DNA from: a virus
Lineage: Duplodnaviria > Heunggongvirae > Uroviricota > Caudoviricetes
Length of the DNA: 10,672 nt
IMG/VR virus record: IMGVR_UViG_2648501787_000005
Reading direction: 5' to 3' (one strand)
The translations under genes and the position numbers were made by a program. Positions 1,130-8,161 of this stretch are shown here, piece by piece. A model generated the notes under the pieces. It had not been told where the DNA came from. It did no database searches and saw nothing but the letters and a program-made list of their open reading frames with translations. Within the stretch, counting starts at the first letter, position 1. Each line of letters starts with the position of its first letter.

Positions 1130-1777
1130 TCAGCGACCAATCACCACAACCTGACCACCATCCCCTTCGTCTGCCGTGCTGATCTCCTGAGAAACCACAC
1201 GTGACCCCACGCGCATTTCACCGTACAGAACAGGCAGAACATTGCCCTGGGCAACCATGTTATCCAGTGAGGAGAAATAGGTGTTCTGTTTGCCGTTATC
1301 TGTACTGGCTGCCGTGGGCGTCCTGGCTTTCGGTGCCAGCATCTGCGCCACTCCGCCCAGGATCATACTGGCCCCTGCCGCATACATGCCCGATACAGCC
1401 GCGGCCCCCAGCCAGCCCACAGGGTTCCACCATGCCACCGCAATCAGCGCCGCCCCAAGCACCACCTGAAACACACCGCCACTTTTAGCTCCCGCCAGAC
1501 GCGGCACGATGTGGATCACGGCACCATTTGCCAGCGGCTCATTAAGACGGGCAGATAATTCATTTTCGCCTGCATCACGCCCGGCAATGCGCACCTGATA
1601 CCAGCCCTCATTCAGTTTCTGACGAAACACCGGGAGCTGTGTGGCCAGTGCCCGGATGGCTTCAGCCCCCGTTTTCACACGAAGGTCGATACGGCGACCA
1701 AATCGTTGCAAATCCCCGTAAAGGCAGATGCGTGCCATGCCCGGTGACGCCAGAGGGAGTGTGTGCGTCGCTGCCAT
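1130..1777 (-). CDS. I: Tail tip assembly protein I
   Basis: 215-aa ORF; ATG at 1777 with GAGAGAGG upstream; N-terminus MAATHTLPLASPGMARICLYGDLQRFGRRIDLRVKTGAEAIRALATQLP and C-terminus NGKQNTYFSSLDNMVAQGNVLPVLYGEMRVGSRVVSQEISTADEGDGGQVVVIGR match lambda gpI as I recall it; the central segment is divergent. Confidence 0.88.
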   Translation of the reverse strand: MAATHTLPLASPGMARICLYGDLQRFGRRIDLRVKTGAEAIRALATQLPVFRQKLNEGWYQVRIAGRDAGENELSARLNEPLANGAVIHIVPRLAGAKSGGVFQVVLGAALIAVAWWNPVGWLGAAAVSGMYAAGASMILGGVAQMLAPKARTPTAASTDNGKQNTYFSSLDNMVAQGNVLPVLYGEMRVGSRVVSQEISTADEGDGGQVVVIGR

Positions 1778-2418
1778 TTGTCGGTGTACCTCTCTCGTTT
1801 ACTCAGTTGTTCAGGAATATGGTGCAGCAGCTCGCCGTCGCCACAGTAAATGGCGGCATGATTCGGCACCGATGAACCAAAACAGCACAGCAGCACATCG
1901 CCCGGCTGGGCCGCTGACAACGGCACCTGATACAACCCCGTTGCCTCCATATTATCCAGATAGAGATTCTGGCCGTGACGCCACCAGTCATCCCCGCGAT
2001 GAAAATCCGGCATCTCAATTCCCGCCAGATGGTAAGCGTCCCGGAACAGCGTGTAACAGTCCGTCACCCCGTGCTCAAAGCGCCGCCCGGTGAGATGCGG
2101 CACACAGCGGAACTTATGAATCGCCCCCCGGCAGACCAGCCACCACGGCAAATCACTCTGCACCTGCAGCCGCCGGTCGGCCTCACTCAGCCAGGGCAGA
2201 CCACCGGGGTGGCTGTGGACCAGCGCCACAATCTCTCCCTGCATTTCTGCACTCAGCCAGTCCTCCGGCGACATCCGGAAATACTCCTCCGGCTCACCAG
2301 AGATATTCACGCAGGGAAAATATCTTTCCCCTTCCGGCGTTCTCACCACGAAGCCGCACGACTCCGCTGGCGCACATCGCCGGGCGTGCGCCAGAATCGC
2401 TGATTCTGTCTCTGTCAT
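1675..2418 (-). CDS. K: Tail tip assembly protein K (N-terminal JAMM/MPN-like domain plus C-terminal NlpC/P60-like domain)
   Basis: 247-aa ORF; ATG at 2418, 5 nt after the L stop; HSHPGG(x6)SxxD metalloprotease-like motif encoded at about 2179..2217; Cys (VTDCYTL) and His (PNHAAIY, ELLHHI) in NlpC/P60-like spacing. An alternative internal start at Met49 (2274) would give 199 aa. Confidence 0.85.
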   Translation of the reverse strand: MTETESAILAHARRCAPAESCGFVVRTPEGERYFPCVNISGEPEEYFRMSPEDWLSAEMQGEIVALVHSHPGGLPWLSEADRRLQVQSDLPWWLVCRGAIHKFRCVPHLTGRRFEHGVTDCYTLFRDAYHLAGIEMPDFHRGDDWWRHGQNLYLDNMEATGLYQVPLSAAQPGDVLLCCFGSSVPNHAAIYCGDGELLHHIPEQLSKRERYTDKWQRRTHSLWRHRAWHASAFTGICNDLVAVSTFV

Positions 2419-2423
2419 GGGAT

Positions 2424-3122
2424 TTACTGCGAAAGTTTGTTAATGGAAAGGTAGCCGCCAAAATTGCCGACGTTATTGCGGAACTTGCAACCACTCAGGC
2501 ATTTGCTGCACTTATCCTTCGTGATATCGGACGTTGGCTGGTCATATTCATCCGCGACAGCCGGGCCATCATAACCGCACTCATCGCCGCGGTAGATCCA
2601 GGTGCAGGTGTTGGCCAGCATGATGCGCCCCGGAAAAACGGCACCATCCGTTTCCGTCGGTGTGGACAACACAAAGGAGGCACTGACCGCGCTCAGTTCG
2701 CTGCACTGCTCGATGCGCCAGCGGCTGATCACCTCCTGCTCCGGATCGGCGTCACTGTTTCCGTTGACGAAGTTCACCGCATCCAGAAAACGGGCGTAAA
2801 CCTTACGCCTGACCACCGTTCCGCCGACCAGACTCTGCAGGTCTTCCGCCATCCCGGTGACCATGCCGTGCAGGTTAGAGACTTTCAGCGTTGGTCTTGC
2901 ACTGGCTCCTTTGCCGTTCATCTCAAAGCCGCTTCCCTGAATAGGGTACGCCTGATACTGTCGCCCCTGCCAGGTGACCGACTCACCTTTTTCGTTCTGC
3001 TCATTACAGAAAAAATAACGTTCTCCGCCGACCTCTGTCAGATCGACTTCCCAGAGCACGATCAGCGCGGATTGCTCCGTTTTAGTGCACTCATTGAGTG
3101 TTTCCTGCTGTATATCCTGCAT
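2424..3122 (-). CDS. L: Tail tip protein L
   Basis: 232-aa ORF; ATG at 3122 overlaps the M stop (TGATG); sequence MQDIQQETLNEC...FFCNEQNEKGE...VYARFLDAVNFVNGNS... closely matches lambda gpL as recalled; C-terminal cysteines C173, C182, C205, C208, C212. Confidence 0.9.
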   Translation of the reverse strand: MQDIQQETLNECTKTEQSALIVLWEVDLTEVGGERYFFCNEQNEKGESVTWQGRQYQAYPIQGSGFEMNGKGASARPTLKVSNLHGMVTGMAEDLQSLVGGTVVRRKVYARFLDAVNFVNGNSDADPEQEVISRWRIEQCSELSAVSASFVLSTPTETDGAVFPGRIMLANTCTWIYRGDECGYDGPAVADEYDQPTSDITKDKCSKCLSGCKFRNNVGNFGGYLSINKLSQ

Positions 3123-3463
3123 CAGTGAGTGACCTCTTCAAAGGTACAGTTAAAATCGGTATACATGGCATTATCCGAAATGCTCCACTCCCTGCAGACA
3201 ACCCGGACAGTCCTGTTGTGTTTTGGCGGACGCCACAAAAAAGCACGAATCCCGGCATGACGGGATAAAAAACTGTCCAGCGCGGCACGGGAATATTCAT
3301 CTGTGACACGAAATACCGGTTTAAACGTTTTCAGATCCGCATTCAGACCACCAGCCCGTCGCTGTTCATATCCGTCACCAAACTTTACCGTAATAACTGA
3401 TGGCTTTCGTGTCGTCTCCATCCCCTCACGGGGGATCCAGTTAAAAACTTCAGGCTCAGGCAC
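3122..3463 (-). CDS. M: Minor tail protein M
   Basis: Lambda gpM-like sequence (...VKFGDGYEQRRAGGLNADLK...FLWRPP...). I place the start at GTG 3463..3461 because a GGAGGA sits 7 nt upstream and it overlaps the tape measure stop by 8 nt (GTGCCTGA). The ORF-track start (TTG at 3508) and the ATG at 3478 lack comparable RBS support. Confidence 0.8.
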   Translation of the reverse strand: MPEPEVFNWIPREGMETTRKPSVITVKFGDGYEQRRAGGLNADLKTFKPVFRVTDEYSRAALDSFLSRHAGIRAFLWRPPKHNRTVRVVCREWSISDNAMYTDFNCTFEEVTH

Positions 3464-6400
3464 TGTACAATCCTCCATCCCGACGCGATGACTGCATAAT
3501 TGACACAACCCTGCTGTCGATCAGATCCACCAATCCCCTGGCTGAGCGCGCATCTATCTCGCCATTGCTCCCTTGATTCTGAATGCTGATGTGATACACG
3601 GGAGAATAAACAACCCCCCCGCCACTATTCACATTGCCAATGGCTCTGACCCCAAGAGAGCCGTCCGCTGCCCGTGTCAGTGGCATGATAGCTTCAGGCC
3701 CGGCCTCGCCCATCAGCCCGGCACCTTTCGCAAAAGCAAAATACGTCGGTGTATCCACAATAGTGTTACTGTAAGCACTCAGATTTGCCGATGTGTAAAC
3801 ACCACCTTTTGCGTTTGCCACCGCCCCCGAAATCCATCCGCCGACCGTACCAAGCCACCCTCCGGCACCGGAGAGTGACTTCAGTCCGTTAACAATGGCC
3901 GCATTCATCAGAATTTTTGAAACTTCCCGGAGAACTGAACTCCCCCAGTTTCTCCAGTCCACAACATTTCCGGCCAGTGCATCGGAAATATTTGATACCA
4001 GTCCGTCCATAGTGGAAACGACAGCATCTGCCGCCTGCGAAGCATAATCGGTGGCACTGTCTGCCCAGTTGGTCAGCCCCTCCTGGAGTCCTGCATTCCA
4101 GTTATTACGTAAAGCATCGGCCTTTGCATAATAATCCTGCTGATCGCTGAGACGCTCTTCCAGATATTTTTTATTCAGTTCTTTCTCCTGTTTCCACAGG
4201 GCTTCTTCAATTTCTCCGGCCTGATACTGTCTCAGAAGCTCGTTATTTTTCTGCTCAAACTCATGCCGGATACTCCACATTTCCTGGAGTCGTTCACGCA
4301 TCCGTGAGCCTTCACCATATCCCAGTAACTGCGCGTCGTCAGATGCCCGGGCACTGGCATTACTGTCCGCCAGGCTGCTTTCATACGCAGCAAGCTGCTC
4401 ACGAATCTTTTTCTGGTCGATGAGTGCTGCATTCTGCAAAAGCATTTTTTTCTGCGCTTCTGACAGGGTTGATAATTCGCCCTGACTGACCTGATATTTC
4501 ATCTTAGCCAGTTCAGTATTCTGCCCTGCCAGTGCTATTTGTTCTTTTTGCTGTTTAATCAGCCGTTTATAAATATCTTCTGTTTTTTCCGCTTCGGTCT
4601 TTTTATGCGCTTTGGGTTTATTTGCCTGGTTATTTCGCCAGGCATCCAGTGAGTTATTGATATAATTCTGTCTGGCTGTCTGATACGCCTCTCCCACAAA
4701 GCCGAGATCATCCGCAGCATAACCCAGGCGGGCACGCTCACGGGCTTCCCCCTTCAGGCGGGACAGAGCCAGTTCGCGCTCGCTGTTATTCAGTGCGGTC
4801 TGCTGTTTATCATCCAGGGTTGCCTGTGGCAGCCGTAACGGTACATTCACCAGCCCCTGTCGCTGCTGAAGTAATTCATTACCGAGCCCGAGAAGGCGAT
4901 TAAACTCGGTATGCTGCCCATTCATGATCAACAGGGACTGATACGCTTTGTTTTGTTCCGCTGCCTGTTGACGGATCAACGCCACCCGTCGCTCCTCCAG
5001 CCCGGCAAGCACATCCTGAATTGATTGCGCTTTGCCCTGCATTTGTGTGAGGCGGGACTGTTCAACTGCCAGTTGATTTGTTGCTTCTGCAAGCCCTTCT
5101 GTGACAGTTTTTACCGACGTCATGTGGTTAATCATAAAACCGTTATCGGTTGTCCAGCCCGGGTTTGCCAGCACATACTGATAGCCAGCAATTTTTTCCT
5201 GTAAGGATTTAATCTTACTTTTCTGCTCGTCAATTAACCTGTTTTGCTCATCAAGTGCCTGCCGCGTCTTTTCCTCATTATCTGACGCTTCAGGAAGCGA
5301 CATTGCCGACGTTTTCTGGCGAATTTCGTCGATTGTTGCGGCATACTGGCGTGCAGATTCTCTGGCCTGCTCCTGATTCTGATACATCGTGTACCAGGCC
5401 GTCGCCCCCAGCATGACGAGTCCCGGCACACCACCAACCAACCCCAGCGCACCACTTAACAGACGACTCCCCACTGACGTGACAGTATTCAGCGTTGTCT
5501 GCGCCGCTGTTCTGGCCGCAATATTACGGGTAAGTGACGCCTGGGCAGCTGTCAGCTTCGCTTCTGCTGCGGCCTGCCTTTCGGTACCGCGAGCAGCAAC
5601 AACCGCCTGTTGCGCACGATAAACCGCCGCACGCGCCCTGGCGGTTGCTATCTGTGTCCCCCGAAGTTGCGCTTCAGCAAGAGCCACTTCGTTTCTGGCT
5701 GCAGTAATTAATCCGGCAGTTGCAGATCCAGCAGACGACGCCATATTGCCAAAATATCGGGCTACCCCGACGGCAACCAGTGCGCCAGCTGCAGCAGCCA
5801 CGGTATCAATATTGTCTGCAACACCATTCAACACCCCGGTGAGTGTCTTTGTCACTCCGCTTGCCTCGTTCGCACCACCAACCCAGGCCATAAAGGCGTT
5901 TTCAACTTTGGTTGCAGAGGATGAAACAGTATCAGGCATTGCTGCATATTCATCACGCAACGCCCCAAGCTGACTAATCAGTGCAGGAACAACCTTATCG
6001 GCGGTCAGTTTTCCGTTATCCGCCATGGCCTTCAGATCCTTACGGGCAACACCCATTCCCGCAGCCAGCGCACGAATAACACGATCGCCGTTCTCATTCA
6101 CCGAGTTAAATTCTTCACCACGCAGCACTCCCTGCGCCAGTGCCTGACTGAACTGCGTGATCACCGAACTGGCTTCTGCTGTACTGGCACCGGATAATTT
6201 CAGGCCCGTGGAGATCGCCTCGGTGACTTTCAGTACCTCCTCAGAACTGTAGCCATACTCCCGCATGGAAGCTGCAGAACGGGCAAAAAGGCTGGCGTTA
6301 TCAGAAAACGCCGTCCCCGTTCTCTGGCTGATCGCCATTAATTCACGCTGTGATGCCTGAAAATCATCACTGGACTGTGAGGCCTGCTTCAGACGGGCAT

Positions 6401-6689
6401 TTACTGAATTCCACTCATCGGCGAGAGAAATAAGATGACCGGTAGCAAAAGCCCCGGCAAATGCCCCCGCCATATTCAGTGCCGAAGATTTAGCTGTATT
6501 TATCTGATCCGTCACTTCTGCCAGTGCACGCCGCATTTCACGGGATGCAGCAGCGGACTGCCGGCCTCCGTTCTGCATGGTACGGTAGTAATCCTGCCCC
6601 ATACGCGAAGCCCGGGAGATCTCTGACTGGAATGACCGGGAATTTGCCGAGATTTTAATAATCAGTTCACGTAATGTCGCCACACTCAT
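3456..6689 (-). CDS. Tail tape measure protein (1077 aa)
   Basis: Largest ORF, positioned between the G/GT chaperone genes and M; Ala/Gln-rich coiled-coil repeats, central hydrophobic Gly/Ala-rich segments, C-terminus ...SRRDGGLYSA resembling the lambda gpH C-terminus; ATG at 6689 with GGAGA upstream. Otherwise not lambda gpH-like. Confidence 0.9.
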   Translation of the reverse strand: MSVATLRELIIKISANSRSFQSEISRASRMGQDYYRTMQNGGRQSAAASREMRRALAEVTDQINTAKSSALNMAGAFAGAFATGHLISLADEWNSVNARLKQASQSSDDFQASQRELMAISQRTGTAFSDNASLFARSAASMREYGYSSEEVLKVTEAISTGLKLSGASTAEASSVITQFSQALAQGVLRGEEFNSVNENGDRVIRALAAGMGVARKDLKAMADNGKLTADKVVPALISQLGALRDEYAAMPDTVSSSATKVENAFMAWVGGANEASGVTKTLTGVLNGVADNIDTVAAAAGALVAVGVARYFGNMASSAGSATAGLITAARNEVALAEAQLRGTQIATARARAAVYRAQQAVVAARGTERQAAAEAKLTAAQASLTRNIAARTAAQTTLNTVTSVGSRLLSGALGLVGGVPGLVMLGATAWYTMYQNQEQARESARQYAATIDEIRQKTSAMSLPEASDNEEKTRQALDEQNRLIDEQKSKIKSLQEKIAGYQYVLANPGWTTDNGFMINHMTSVKTVTEGLAEATNQLAVEQSRLTQMQGKAQSIQDVLAGLEERRVALIRQQAAEQNKAYQSLLIMNGQHTEFNRLLGLGNELLQQRQGLVNVPLRLPQATLDDKQQTALNNSERELALSRLKGEARERARLGYAADDLGFVGEAYQTARQNYINNSLDAWRNNQANKPKAHKKTEAEKTEDIYKRLIKQQKEQIALAGQNTELAKMKYQVSQGELSTLSEAQKKMLLQNAALIDQKKIREQLAAYESSLADSNASARASDDAQLLGYGEGSRMRERLQEMWSIRHEFEQKNNELLRQYQAGEIEEALWKQEKELNKKYLEERLSDQQDYYAKADALRNNWNAGLQEGLTNWADSATDYASQAADAVVSTMDGLVSNISDALAGNVVDWRNWGSSVLREVSKILMNAAIVNGLKSLSGAGGWLGTVGGWISGAVANAKGGVYTSANLSAYSNTIVDTPTYFAFAKGAGLMGEAGPEAIMPLTRAADGSLGVRAIGNVNSGGGVVYSPVYHISIQNQGSNGEIDARSARGLVDLIDSRVVSIMQSSRRDGGLYSA

Positions 6690-6698
6690 TCTCCGGAC

Positions 6699-6722
6699 GA
6701 AAAAAAACCGCCGAAGCGGTTA
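6699..6722 (-). terminator. Predicted intrinsic terminator between the T-domain ORF and the tape measure gene
   Basis: Minus strand AACCGC-TTCG-GCGGTT (GC stem, UUCG loop) followed directly by a run of 8 T, lying in the 40-nt gap between the T stop (6730) and the tape measure ATG (6689). Confidence 0.5.
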
Positions 6723-6729
6723 TGTTGAC

Positions 6730-7041
6730 TCACTGAGACACTATTAAAAGCGCGTTTTCCAGTCCGGCAAATGGATCTGAGGCGCCTTCTGTCTGCTCTT
6801 GTTCCCACTGAAGAAGAGCATCATTCAGTGGTACTTTGACCCCCTGCGCACCGTAAACCGCTGAAACAATCTGGGCAGCCCGGATATCAGCCCGTTCGTC
6901 CCCCAGCGGGCTGAACCTGTCAAATTCTGCCCACATCATGATTTCTGATGCGGACATTTCCCGGCGTAACTCTGACAATGTGCGCCCCATCCTGAGCGCC
7001 AGCATCATCAGAAAACGCATCCCCGGAAGCGCTACTTTTTT
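6730..7041 (-). CDS. T: T-domain of tail assembly chaperone, made as a G-T fusion by -1 frameshift (C-terminal extension, not an independent gene)
   Basis: ORF 6730..7020 lies exactly in the -1 frame relative to G; the -1 frame is open from the slippery heptamer (7041) through 6730; conserved G/GT arrangement between major tail and tape measure genes. Confidence 0.7.
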   Translation of the reverse strand, partial: KKVALPGMRFLMMLALRMGRTLSELRREMSASEIMMWAEFDRFSPLGDERADIRAAQIVSAVYGAQGVKVPLNDALLQWEQEQTEGASDPFAGLENALLIVSQ

Positions 7042-7403
7042 TTAACCTCGCCGGCATCACTGATCAGTTCCAGAGACTGCCGAAGAAGCCGCGCATGCAC
7101 CGGGCCATACACGGCAATCACCTGTTCACGATCATCCTCTGAAAATACGGGTTGCAGTCCGGTATCACACAGAACATCAATGAACAGTTCAACATCTGCC
7201 TCCAGATTTCGGCGGGCGCGCTCCGCAACGGATAACGGTGTCTCATCATCTTTTGCTTTAACGATCTCCTGCCAGCGCAACCAGGCTTCTGCAGAAGGTT
7301 CCCGTAACACAACCGTTGCTCCCTCCCATTCAGGCACATCAACGGTTTTATGGCGAAACCCCGACATCGTTGCCAGTGCCAGATTACGGATATTTTTAGT
7401 CAT
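7032..7403 (-). CDS. G: Tail assembly chaperone G
   Basis: ORF between major tail and tape measure genes, ending at the slippery site. Start chosen at ATG 7403 (GAGGA 8 nt upstream); the ATG at 7418 overlapping the major tail stop (TAATG) is an alternative. Confidence 0.75.
   Translation of the reverse strand: MTKNIRNLALATMSGFRHKTVDVPEWEGATVVLREPSAEAWLRWQEIVKAKDDETPLSVAERARRNLEADVELFIDVLCDTGLQPVFSEDDREQVIAVYGPVHARLLRQSLELISDAGEVKKK
7035..7041 (-). other. -1 programmed ribosomal frameshift slippery heptamer A_AAA_AAG
   Basis: Minus strand reads GTT AAA AAA AAG TAG in the G frame; heptamer A AAA AAG fits X_XXY_YYZ and is immediately followed by the 0-frame stop at 7034..7032. Confidence 0.7.
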
Positions 7404-7417
7404 CACATCCATCCTCA

Positions 7418-8122
7418 TTAACTGACGGTTACAGTGCAGGAAGTGGAGGTCACTTTGTTAACCGGGCTCGCTGAATCAGAAATCTCGCAGGTATACGCAC
7501 CGGCATCACCGGATGCTGCTGATGCCTTACTGAACGTTGCCGCCGTCTGTCCGGAAACAGGAGAACCACCTTTTTTCCAGGCATAAGAATAAGGCGGCAC
7601 ACCACCCACAGCCTCAACCGCCATTTCAAGTTTCGCTCCGGAAGCAACCCGCAGCGTGCTTTTTAAATCGACCTTCACTTTCAGCGGCTCTGTCGTCAGC
7701 ACAGGCTTACCTTTCAGGCGCAGAGAAAACGTTGCAGCCACAACACCATTGGTTCCTGCAGACCAGGTATGCTGACGCACCTCTGCCATAAAGGTAAATC
7801 CGTTGCCTGACGGAAAAATAACTTTAAAGCCATACGTGGTGTCATTGTCATAGGCACTGCGCAACGCGTTCTGGGCAGCATTCAGATAAAAGTTGCCTGA
7901 CATGGAAATCTCTGAAGCAGCCCCAAGACCGTTAATATTTTCCTGCTCAACAGAACACAGCGTGGTGACATCAATATCCTGCTTTTGTCCTGCGGTAAAC
8001 TGCACCTCTTTGATTGTACAGCTCAGGCCAAGATAGCTGGCAGAATCCAGGGTTTCTGCTGTTACCGGTGCAGACGAAATCATAATTTTCGTCAGTTGCG
8101 AACGCTCAAAATTAGAGGACAT
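7418..8122 (-). CDS. Major tail (tube) protein with C-terminal Ig-like domain
   Basis: 234-aa ORF directly upstream of G; ATG at 8122 with AGGAGA upstream; C-terminal ~85 aa (...PPYSYAWKKGG...GAYTCEISD...CTVTVS) has an Ig-like/Big_2-like pattern as in the lambda gpV C-terminal domain; N-terminal tube domain is not lambda V-like. Confidence 0.8.
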   Translation of the reverse strand: MSSNFERSQLTKIMISSAPVTAETLDSASYLGLSCTIKEVQFTAGQKQDIDVTTLCSVEQENINGLGAASEISMSGNFYLNAAQNALRSAYDNDTTYGFKVIFPSGNGFTFMAEVRQHTWSAGTNGVVAATFSLRLKGKPVLTTEPLKVKVDLKSTLRVASGAKLEMAVEAVGGVPPYSYAWKKGGSPVSGQTAATFSKASAASGDAGAYTCEISDSASPVNKVTSTSCTVTVS

Positions 8123-8133
8123 ACTCGTCTCCT

Positions 8134-8161
8134 GAAAATAAAAAAACCCGCCAGCGGCGGG
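8134..8161 (-). terminator. Predicted intrinsic terminator between the tail terminator gene and the major tail gene
   Basis: Minus strand CCCGCC-GCT-GGCGGG (6-bp all-GC stem) followed by TTTTTTTATTTT, then AGGAGA and the major tail ATG. Confidence 0.5.

Follow-up and report, generated by a model that had tools for sequence, protein, structure and literature searches.

The window, a stretch of 10,672 nucleotides from a virus of the Caudoviricetes (IMG/VR record IMGVR_UViG_2648501787_000005), carries the tail genes G and T in two different reading frames, and this arrangement raises the question of whether T is translated on its own or as the C-terminal part of a G-T fusion protein that arises by a programmed -1 ribosomal frameshift. 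An earlier note on this DNA had proposed the latter. The window represents the late structural operon of an HK97/lambda-like E. coli prophage, in which all genes lie on one (minus) strand in the order capsid, connector, head closure, gp10-like, tail completion, major tail, G, T, tape measure, M, L, K, I, and J. The G/T pair was found on the minus strand, flanked by the genes for the major tail protein and the tape measure protein, the latter gene starting at GTG 6683 according to PGAP. This region shares 97–99% identity with eleven temperate E. coli phages, among them phi467, Evi, and the vB_EcoS series, and near-identical prophages were detected in 903 of 5,426 complete E. coli genomes. In the GenBank and RefSeq records of near-identical prophages that were inspected, G and T are annotated as separate coding sequences, with T starting from the ATG equivalent to position 7020 and with no slippage join between them.

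Around the end of G, the minus strand reads ...GGC GAG GTT AAA AAA AAG TAG CGC TTC CGG GGA TGC GTT... The heptamer A_AAA_AAG lies in the X_XXY_YYZ phase relative to the G frame and the 0-frame stop codon TAG abuts it; all coordinates of this arrangement agreed with those given in the earlier note. Frame analysis confirmed that the -1 frame is open from the TAA codon at 7044..7042 down to the TGA codon at 6732..6730. The overlap of the two frames comprises 10 nt including the 0-frame stop and is limited to the heptamer. Since the TAA codon of the -1 frame is located directly before the heptamer, the fusion can arise only via a shift inside the heptamer. The number of heptamers as such was uninformative, as three copies were counted in the window versus 1.6 expected and 42 of 200 shuffles reached three. 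Three properties of this copy go beyond chance: it is in phase, it sits in the only stretch where a G homologue and a T homologue overlap in the 0 and -1 frames, and relatives have conserved it. The A8 run (7036..7043) enclosing the heptamer is also a hotspot for indels or sequencing errors. The coordinates of the features are collected in Table 1.

Table 1. Features of the G/T junction and its neighbours, in coordinates of the window.
Feature	Position	Strand	Basis
Major tail protein, C-terminal Ig-like domain (upstream neighbour)	7418..8122	-	Pfam Ig_2/Ig_3; weak Phage_TTP_11/Phage_tail_2
Gene G, tail assembly chaperone, 123 aa + TAG stop	7032..7403	-	PF06222, 2ob9, phrog_344, PGAP
G-T fusion coding region, predicted product 224 aa	6730..7403	-	Frame analysis; HK97 counterpart join
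TAA stop of the -1 (T) frame abutting the heptamer on its upstream side	7042..7044	-	Frame analysis
A8 homopolymer run enclosing the heptamer	7036..7043	-	Sequence
Slippery heptamer A_AAA_AAG, X_XXY_YYZ phase, proposed -1 shift site	7035..7041	-	In-phase motif
0-frame stop TAG abutting the heptamer, ends G	7032..7034	-	Frame analysis
T segment, 101 codons of the -1 frame beginning with the re-read G at 7035 and followed by TGA 6732..6730	6730..7035	-	PF06223
Tape measure protein (downstream neighbour)	3456..6689	-	Pfam Phage_HK97_TLTM E 1e-93, TMP_3, Tape_meas_lam_C

Searches with the G protein revealed matches to the Pfam family PF06222 (Phage_TAC_1, E 2.7e-58), to phrog_344, and to the Protein Data Bank entry 2ob9 ("tail assembly chaperone", E 4.7e-49), the sequence of which agrees with the HK97 gp13 translation across the aligned stretch. 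Judged by this homology, G is a tail assembly chaperone of the HK97 gp13 type. PGAP calls an identical coding sequence of 372 nt for G, starting at ATG 7403. This start codon is preceded by GAGGA 7 nt upstream (SD duplex energy -8.5 kcal/mol), whereas the alternative in-frame ATG 7418 is without an SD sequence (duplex energy +0.7 kcal/mol), and ATG 7403 is most plausibly the start of G. The T segment matched the Pfam family PF06223 (Phage_tail_T, E 1e-19), into which lambda T also falls (E 6.3e-14). A search of NCBIfam with G and with T gave no match for either of them. These two homologies together with the synteny bore out the G/GT arrangement between major tail and tape measure genes that the earlier note had recognized.

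The predicted G-T fusion has a length of 224 aa when started from ATG 7403 and of 229 aa when started from ATG 7418, so that the earlier estimate of about 230 aa was a fair one, and its junction reads ...GEVKKK/VALPGMRFLMM... (the slash marks the shift point), as anticipated. PGAP annotates T as a separate 96-aa coding sequence from ATG 7020. The 224-position profile phrog_14766 matches G at positions 1-121 and T at positions 126-220; as this profile spans both G and T, the fused products form an already annotated phage protein family. In 198 phage records, tblastn found G and T as two pieces. Matches in which G and T form a single open reading frame were also considered as natural fusions ("Rosetta stones") and were set aside: two of them (P0001 and P0003) derive from error-ridden Logan contigs, and the third (P0002) is a lone JGI contig with an 11-nt deletion. 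As evidence for a fusion, these matches are weak.

The best explanation of this locus, to which we assign a probability of about 0.9, is that a programmed -1 frameshift at A_AAA_AAG generates a G-T fusion protein alongside G. This explanation is based on the layout of the site, on the homologies of both segments, on the conservation of the site, and on the coding character of the -1 frame upstream of any start codon. Most ribosomes translating G would stop at the TAG codon and release the chaperone G, whereas a small share would slip back by one base on the heptamer. By analogy with the 6–7% reported for homologous sites and with the G:GT ratio of about 30:1 in lambda, this share is probably a few percent. 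During the slip, the E. coli lysine tRNA would re-pair from AAG to AAA, because it pairs better with AAA than with AAG. The slip may occur either in tandem with the lysine tRNA in the P site or by a single tRNA while the adjacent stop codon awaits the release factor; both variants would yield the identical protein. Thereafter the ribosome would read GTA GCG CTT CCG... and complete the 224-aa G-T. To judge by homology with lambda, the tape measure protein would be coated by G and by the G portion of G-T, the T portion would bring in the major tail protein for polymerisation of the tube around the tape measure, and neither G nor G-T would remain in the virion.

In order to place the site within its family, an alignment of 20 diverged G proteins served as the query and retrieved 56 loci from about 25 genera of Enterobacterales with 46–70% identity; the window, HK97, mEp234, and phage 2851 were added to these. 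The 58 evaluable loci, i.e., those with a G of normal length, comprised 54 Enterobacterales genome loci and the four additions. In 57 of the 58 loci, the C-terminal end of G carries A_AAG in phase and within the overlap of the 0 and -1 frames. The site was A_AAA_AAG in 33 of these 57 loci, and in 26 of the 33 the G stop abuts AAG as it does in the window. The HK97-type site G_GAA_AAG occurred in eight loci with the G stop 15 nt downstream, and the lambda heptamer G_GGA_AAG in five loci with the G stop 3 nt downstream. Nine further loci carried GCA_AAG and two had other sites, in each case with the stop abutting AAG. Altogether, a stop codon abuts AAG in 37 of the 57 loci, and among the 33 unique sequences of this kind it is TAG in 14, TAA in 19, and TGA in none. 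The lysine codon of the site was AAG in all 55 unique genes compared with 30% AAG at the other lysine codons of G, a difference that is partly circular, as the site is defined by an AAG codon; no AAA alternative at this codon was found among the loci compared. Moreover, 24 of the 57 loci possess only A3–A4 runs, and the phase-specific A_AAG is kept throughout.

Past the shift point, the -1 frame encodes the conserved motif V-x-x-P-x-x-x-F-L-M-x-L-A-L-R-[LM]-G-[RK]-T. Of 50 unique sequences, 49 retain the proline that precedes the FLM motif by four residues, and all four synonymous codons are in use (CCC 17, CCG 15, CCT 12, and CCA 5). This proline comes ahead of the first methionine of the T frame in 48 of the 50. 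Coding constraint in the T frame upstream of any methionine means that this stretch can be read only by ribosomes coming from G. As far as the sequences allow a judgment, the conserved upstream proline is the strongest in silico argument against an independent initiation of T. Such an initiation at ATG 7020, or a reinitiation after the TAG, would produce a free 96-aa T and would make the heptamer incidental; this is how PGAP and GenBank annotate T, the distance of ATG 7020 from the G stop (about 11–12 nt) is compatible with termination-reinitiation coupling, and a methionine occupies this position in 12 of 50 unique relatives. However, ATG 7020 has no usable SD sequence, as its GGGG directly abuts the ATG (-4.5 kcal/mol), it is replaced by GTG in one IMG/VR variant, and in four relatives the first T-frame methionine is found only about 30 residues into the frame. 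Together with the function of lambda T within gpGT and with the join annotated in HK97, these findings make a T produced alone very improbable.

Transcriptional slippage would lead to the same protein by another route. If RNA polymerase added one A to the A8 run, a minority of mRNAs with A9 would carry G and T in one frame and encode the identical ...GEVKKKVALPG... sequence, so that analysis of the product, including mass spectrometry, cannot tell this route from a ribosomal slip. With eight A, the run is at the threshold for such an event, A runs with n > 7 having been cited as implicated in transcriptional realignment (Antonov et al., 2013, PMC3711429), and the published reporter assays likewise did not separate transcriptional from ribosomal slippage. 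As the main route it is nevertheless unlikely: the relatives with G_GGA_AAG, G_GAA_AAG, or GCA_AAG have runs of A3–A4, far too short for polymerase slippage, the assayed site of phage 2851 reached 7% with A6 only, and the conserved feature is the phase of A_AAG as a 0-frame codon, which is relevant to ribosomes but not to polymerase. The A8 run may still be a site of minor transcriptional slippage, and a minor contribution of this route to the fusion is possible. Finally, the two frames could be the remains of a single G-T open reading frame that was interrupted by a homopolymer indel, leaving the prophage defective at this point. Indels are frequent in A-runs, A7 alleles as well as contigs full of errors are on record, and one metagenome contig contains an in-frame G-T through an 11-nt deletion. 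But the two-frame arrangement is present in 57 of 58 loci across many genera, in the 198 phage records with a two-piece match, in 874 complete E. coli genomes containing 80% or more of the query, and in HK97 and lambda, both functional phages. The exact pattern occurred with A8 in 105 IMG/VR contigs and with A7 in 3 true homologues, but never with A9, which likewise speaks against a broken gene, and we regard this explanation as hardly credible.

The earlier note had described the site as dnaX-type. The heptamer A_AAA_AAG and the shifty lysine tRNA are indeed common to E. coli dnaX and the window. Frameshifting in dnaX, which yields gamma besides tau, is driven by an upstream SD-like stimulator and a downstream hairpin, reaches about 50%, and results in a shorter product. 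In the window, by contrast, the shift would bypass a stop codon and add 101 residues, and its expected efficiency is a few percent. As for an upstream stimulator, the only SD-like element in the window is GAGGT at 7049..7045, which lies 3 nt from the heptamer and has the wrong spacing. Larsen and colleagues are said to have put the stimulatory spacing, in 1994, at about 10 nt. Among the relatives, anti-SD duplex energies spread between -0.7 and -12.6 kcal/mol, and neither an element nor a spacing was conserved. In a published survey, which searched 6–17 nt upstream of the motif, the A_AAA_AAG_25 cluster was scored "N" for a conserved SD (Sharma et al., 2014, PMC4066793).

Downstream structure was not evident either. 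Four folds of 42–90 nt around or after the site had z values of 0.28, -1.47, 0.28, and 1.13 against shuffles, and the RNAalifold consensus of 33 unique relatives was an open chain (mean z -0.43). The ECs1801 cluster was scored "Y" for a hairpin under looser criteria (Sharma et al., 2014, PMC4066793). Another hairpin, GCGCUC...GGGCGC, which recurs some 36 nt downstream, was considered as a stimulator and rejected, as it falls within the conserved LALRMGR codons, is too distant, and is missing from some relatives. The resemblance to dnaX is limited to the heptamer: of the dnaX-type label this part stood, whereas neither the SD-like element nor the hairpin was found and the product is lengthened instead of shortened.

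Heptamers without stimulators raised frameshifting at most about 10-fold over a background of 0.055%, i.e., to well under 1%, in one reporter system, and natural chaperone sites reached 6–7% in another. Comparison of these values suggests that some effect of the context may exist. The directly adjacent stop codon is an obvious candidate for an effect that raises the rate, and TAG 7032..7034 may act as a "shifty stop" stimulator. In 11 of the 37 loci with an abutting stop, the codon before AAG is GCA (nine loci), GTA, or GAA, which would allow only poor re-pairing in the P site. It is conceivable, though we hold it rather doubtful, that the signal conserved in this family is not the canonical heptamer but the tetramer A_AAG against a stop codon, on which a single lysine tRNA slips in the P site. 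If this were true, the G:G-T ratio would depend on the availability of RF1 and RF2 and on the context after the stop, and rates of several percent would be accounted for without RNA structure.

The significance of this locus lies mainly in its annotation. As the inspected records list G and T as independent genes, the 224-aa G-T is absent from the protein sets, and "T" has been given a start codon that is probably unused. Scientifically, the locus adds a further example of a recoding event familiar from textbooks. In mechanistic terms, the adjacent stop codon is a possible cause of several-percent shifting where no RNA stimulator is evident.

Comparison with known systems supports the -1 frameshift interpretation, which the reporter assays on a homologous site (see below) and the comparative data sustain together. 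HK97 gp13/gp14 (NC_002167, 7472..7858 and join 7472..8145) has a G of the same family as the window (PF06222), and HK97-like phages share about 61% identity with the window over the whole G-T. The T domain, the length of the fusion (224 aa), the position between major tail and tape measure, and the -1 relation of the frames are the same as well, the HK97 "major tail subunit" occupying the position that corresponds to the major tail gene of the window. The HK97 fusion is annotated as a two-piece join "translated due to a -1 frameshift", and mEp234 carries the same annotation. The HK97 site reads CGG GAA AAG in the 0-frame (G_GAA_AAG) and the G stop follows 15 nt later, unlike the window, where A_AAA_AAG abuts the stop. 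Moreover, in HK97 T is separated from the tape measure gene by a moron (gp15) that is absent from the window.

Lambda G/G-T corresponds to the window in gene order and function, in the -1 shift near the end of G, and in a T that belongs to PF06223. In lambda, the tape measure protein is bound by gpG and by the G portion of gpGT and the major tail protein by the T portion, the T sequence acting as part of gpGT; G and GT are made at about 30:1, tail assembly depends on both, and both proteins are absent from the virion (Atkins et al., 2016, review). The lambda heptamer named in the earlier note, G_GGA_AAG, was found to be correct in NC_001416, with the G stop 15 nt downstream. Lambda G falls into another Pfam family (PF06894) than the G of the window (PF06222), and in the alignment with lambda G/GT that had been proposed as a check, BLASTP of the two G-T proteins detected no significant similarity. 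The link between T of the window and T of lambda is provided by their shared Pfam family and not by pairwise BLASTP. That the phage would use another heptamer than lambda for the same function was right as to A_AAA_AAG but does not make the site a new one, since this is the commonest site in the chaperone family, both among our loci and in the published cluster A_AAA_AAG_25. Tetramer A_AAG and the heptamers A_AAA_AAG, G_GGA_AAG, and C_CCA_AAG are the shiftiest in E. coli (Sharma et al., 2014, PMC4066793).

The layout of the window recurs in phage 2851 (NC_049943), grouped here with Stx prophages and with ECs1801 of E. coli O157 Sakai. Here the heptamer likewise forms the last two codons of G, TAG abuts it, and the -1 frame runs V-A-x-P-... 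into the T domain, as in the window; the G-T of phage 2851 is about 64% identical to that of the window, and its run is A6 (AGA AAA AAG) compared with A8 in the window. The cluster A_AAA_AAG_25, which contains 53 genes including ECs1801 and is assigned to the tail assembly chaperone, was rated "[true]"; its motif lies at codon 124 of 124 (G of 124 aa), and its frameshift product has 226 aa (Sharma et al., 2014, PMC4066793). From a 41-gene "phage tail assembly chaperone" cluster resembling HK97, two inserts were assayed in E. coli with a GST-MBP reporter: the insert AGA AAA AAG TAG ... gave 7% ± 0.79 frameshifting and a relative with G_GGA_AAG gave 6% (Antonov et al., 2013, PMC3711429). The 7% insert matches the G/T junction of phage 2851 (NC_049943) exactly. 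The feature described here is already known: it belongs to a known recoding family that was assayed in a close relative, within the same host species and with an equal heptamer-plus-stop layout.

The sequence at which the tail assembly chaperone gene G gives way to the -1-frame ORF T varies across the chaperone family. Two further types of slip site were found in related loci, CGG GAA AAG, as in HK97, and GCA AAG followed by a stop codon, and neither of them is canonical as an X_XXY_YYZ heptamer in the 0-frame phase. The only element of the slip site common to the whole family is A_AAG. The coordinates of these and the other features are listed in the table.

Features of the window and of related loci
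Feature	Position	Strand	Locus or detail
HK97-type site CGG GAA AAG (G_GAA_AAG)	1330-1345 (L142, HK97)		also loci L084-L086, L089, L093, L098
GCA AAG then stop			loci L100, L102, L111, L115, L116, L118, L119, L132, L134
Shortened A-run alleles	window 7036..7043	-	loci L146, L148, L149; proteins P0004-P0006
In-frame G-T gene	1501-2169		L144, JGI 3300055986 contig Ga0250194_04094 (metagenome)
Second AAAAAAG copy	7570..7576	-	within major tail gene, context TGG AAA AAA GGT
Ig-like domain of major tail protein	C-terminal ~80 aa of 7418..8122	-	matches Ig_2, Ig_3, I-set
IS-interrupted prophage copy	1822-4978		L003, E. coli 203740, NZ_CP025913
Intrinsic-terminator-type hairpin	6696..6721	-	AACCGCTTCGGCGGTT then T-run

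The run of eight adenines that contains the A_AAA_AAG heptamer in the window is shortened to seven in three IMG/VR contigs, where this is the sole indel relative to the window, and G runs on in the +1 frame to 160 aa. Products of this shortened-run type constitute the protein clusters P0004 (54 members), P0005 and P0006. These alleles may represent true defective prophages or else homopolymer sequencing errors; the IMG/VR contigs searched for run-length variants contained no A9 allele. In a metagenomic contig of the phage 2851 type (L144), 11 nt (TAGCCCGCCCG) are deleted immediately 3' of A_AAA_AAG, which joins G and T in one frame as a 222-aa ORF, so that this variant would produce the G-T fusion alone, without free G.

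The second AAAAAAG of the window lies in the AAA_AAA_G phase of the major tail gene, as derived from the ORF 8122..7418, unlike the -1 heptamer; frameshifting at this copy is thus unexpected. The Ig-like domain encoded by the same gene is C-terminal and in-frame. In a near-identical E. coli prophage, the HK97 gp10-like gene, which precedes the tail genes, is split by an IS66 element, and the head-tail connector gene has an IS21 element just 5' of it. This copy with its two insertions is probably defective.

The putative terminator hairpin is located inside the tail operon, past the stop codon of T (6730) and ahead of the start of the tape measure gene (6689, or alternatively 6683). In HK97 and mEp234, putative terminators are annotated in the same part of the operon, 3' of the major tail gene and 3' of the moron gp15, which in these phages follows T and precedes the tape measure gene. 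The window possesses the hairpin but lacks the moron.
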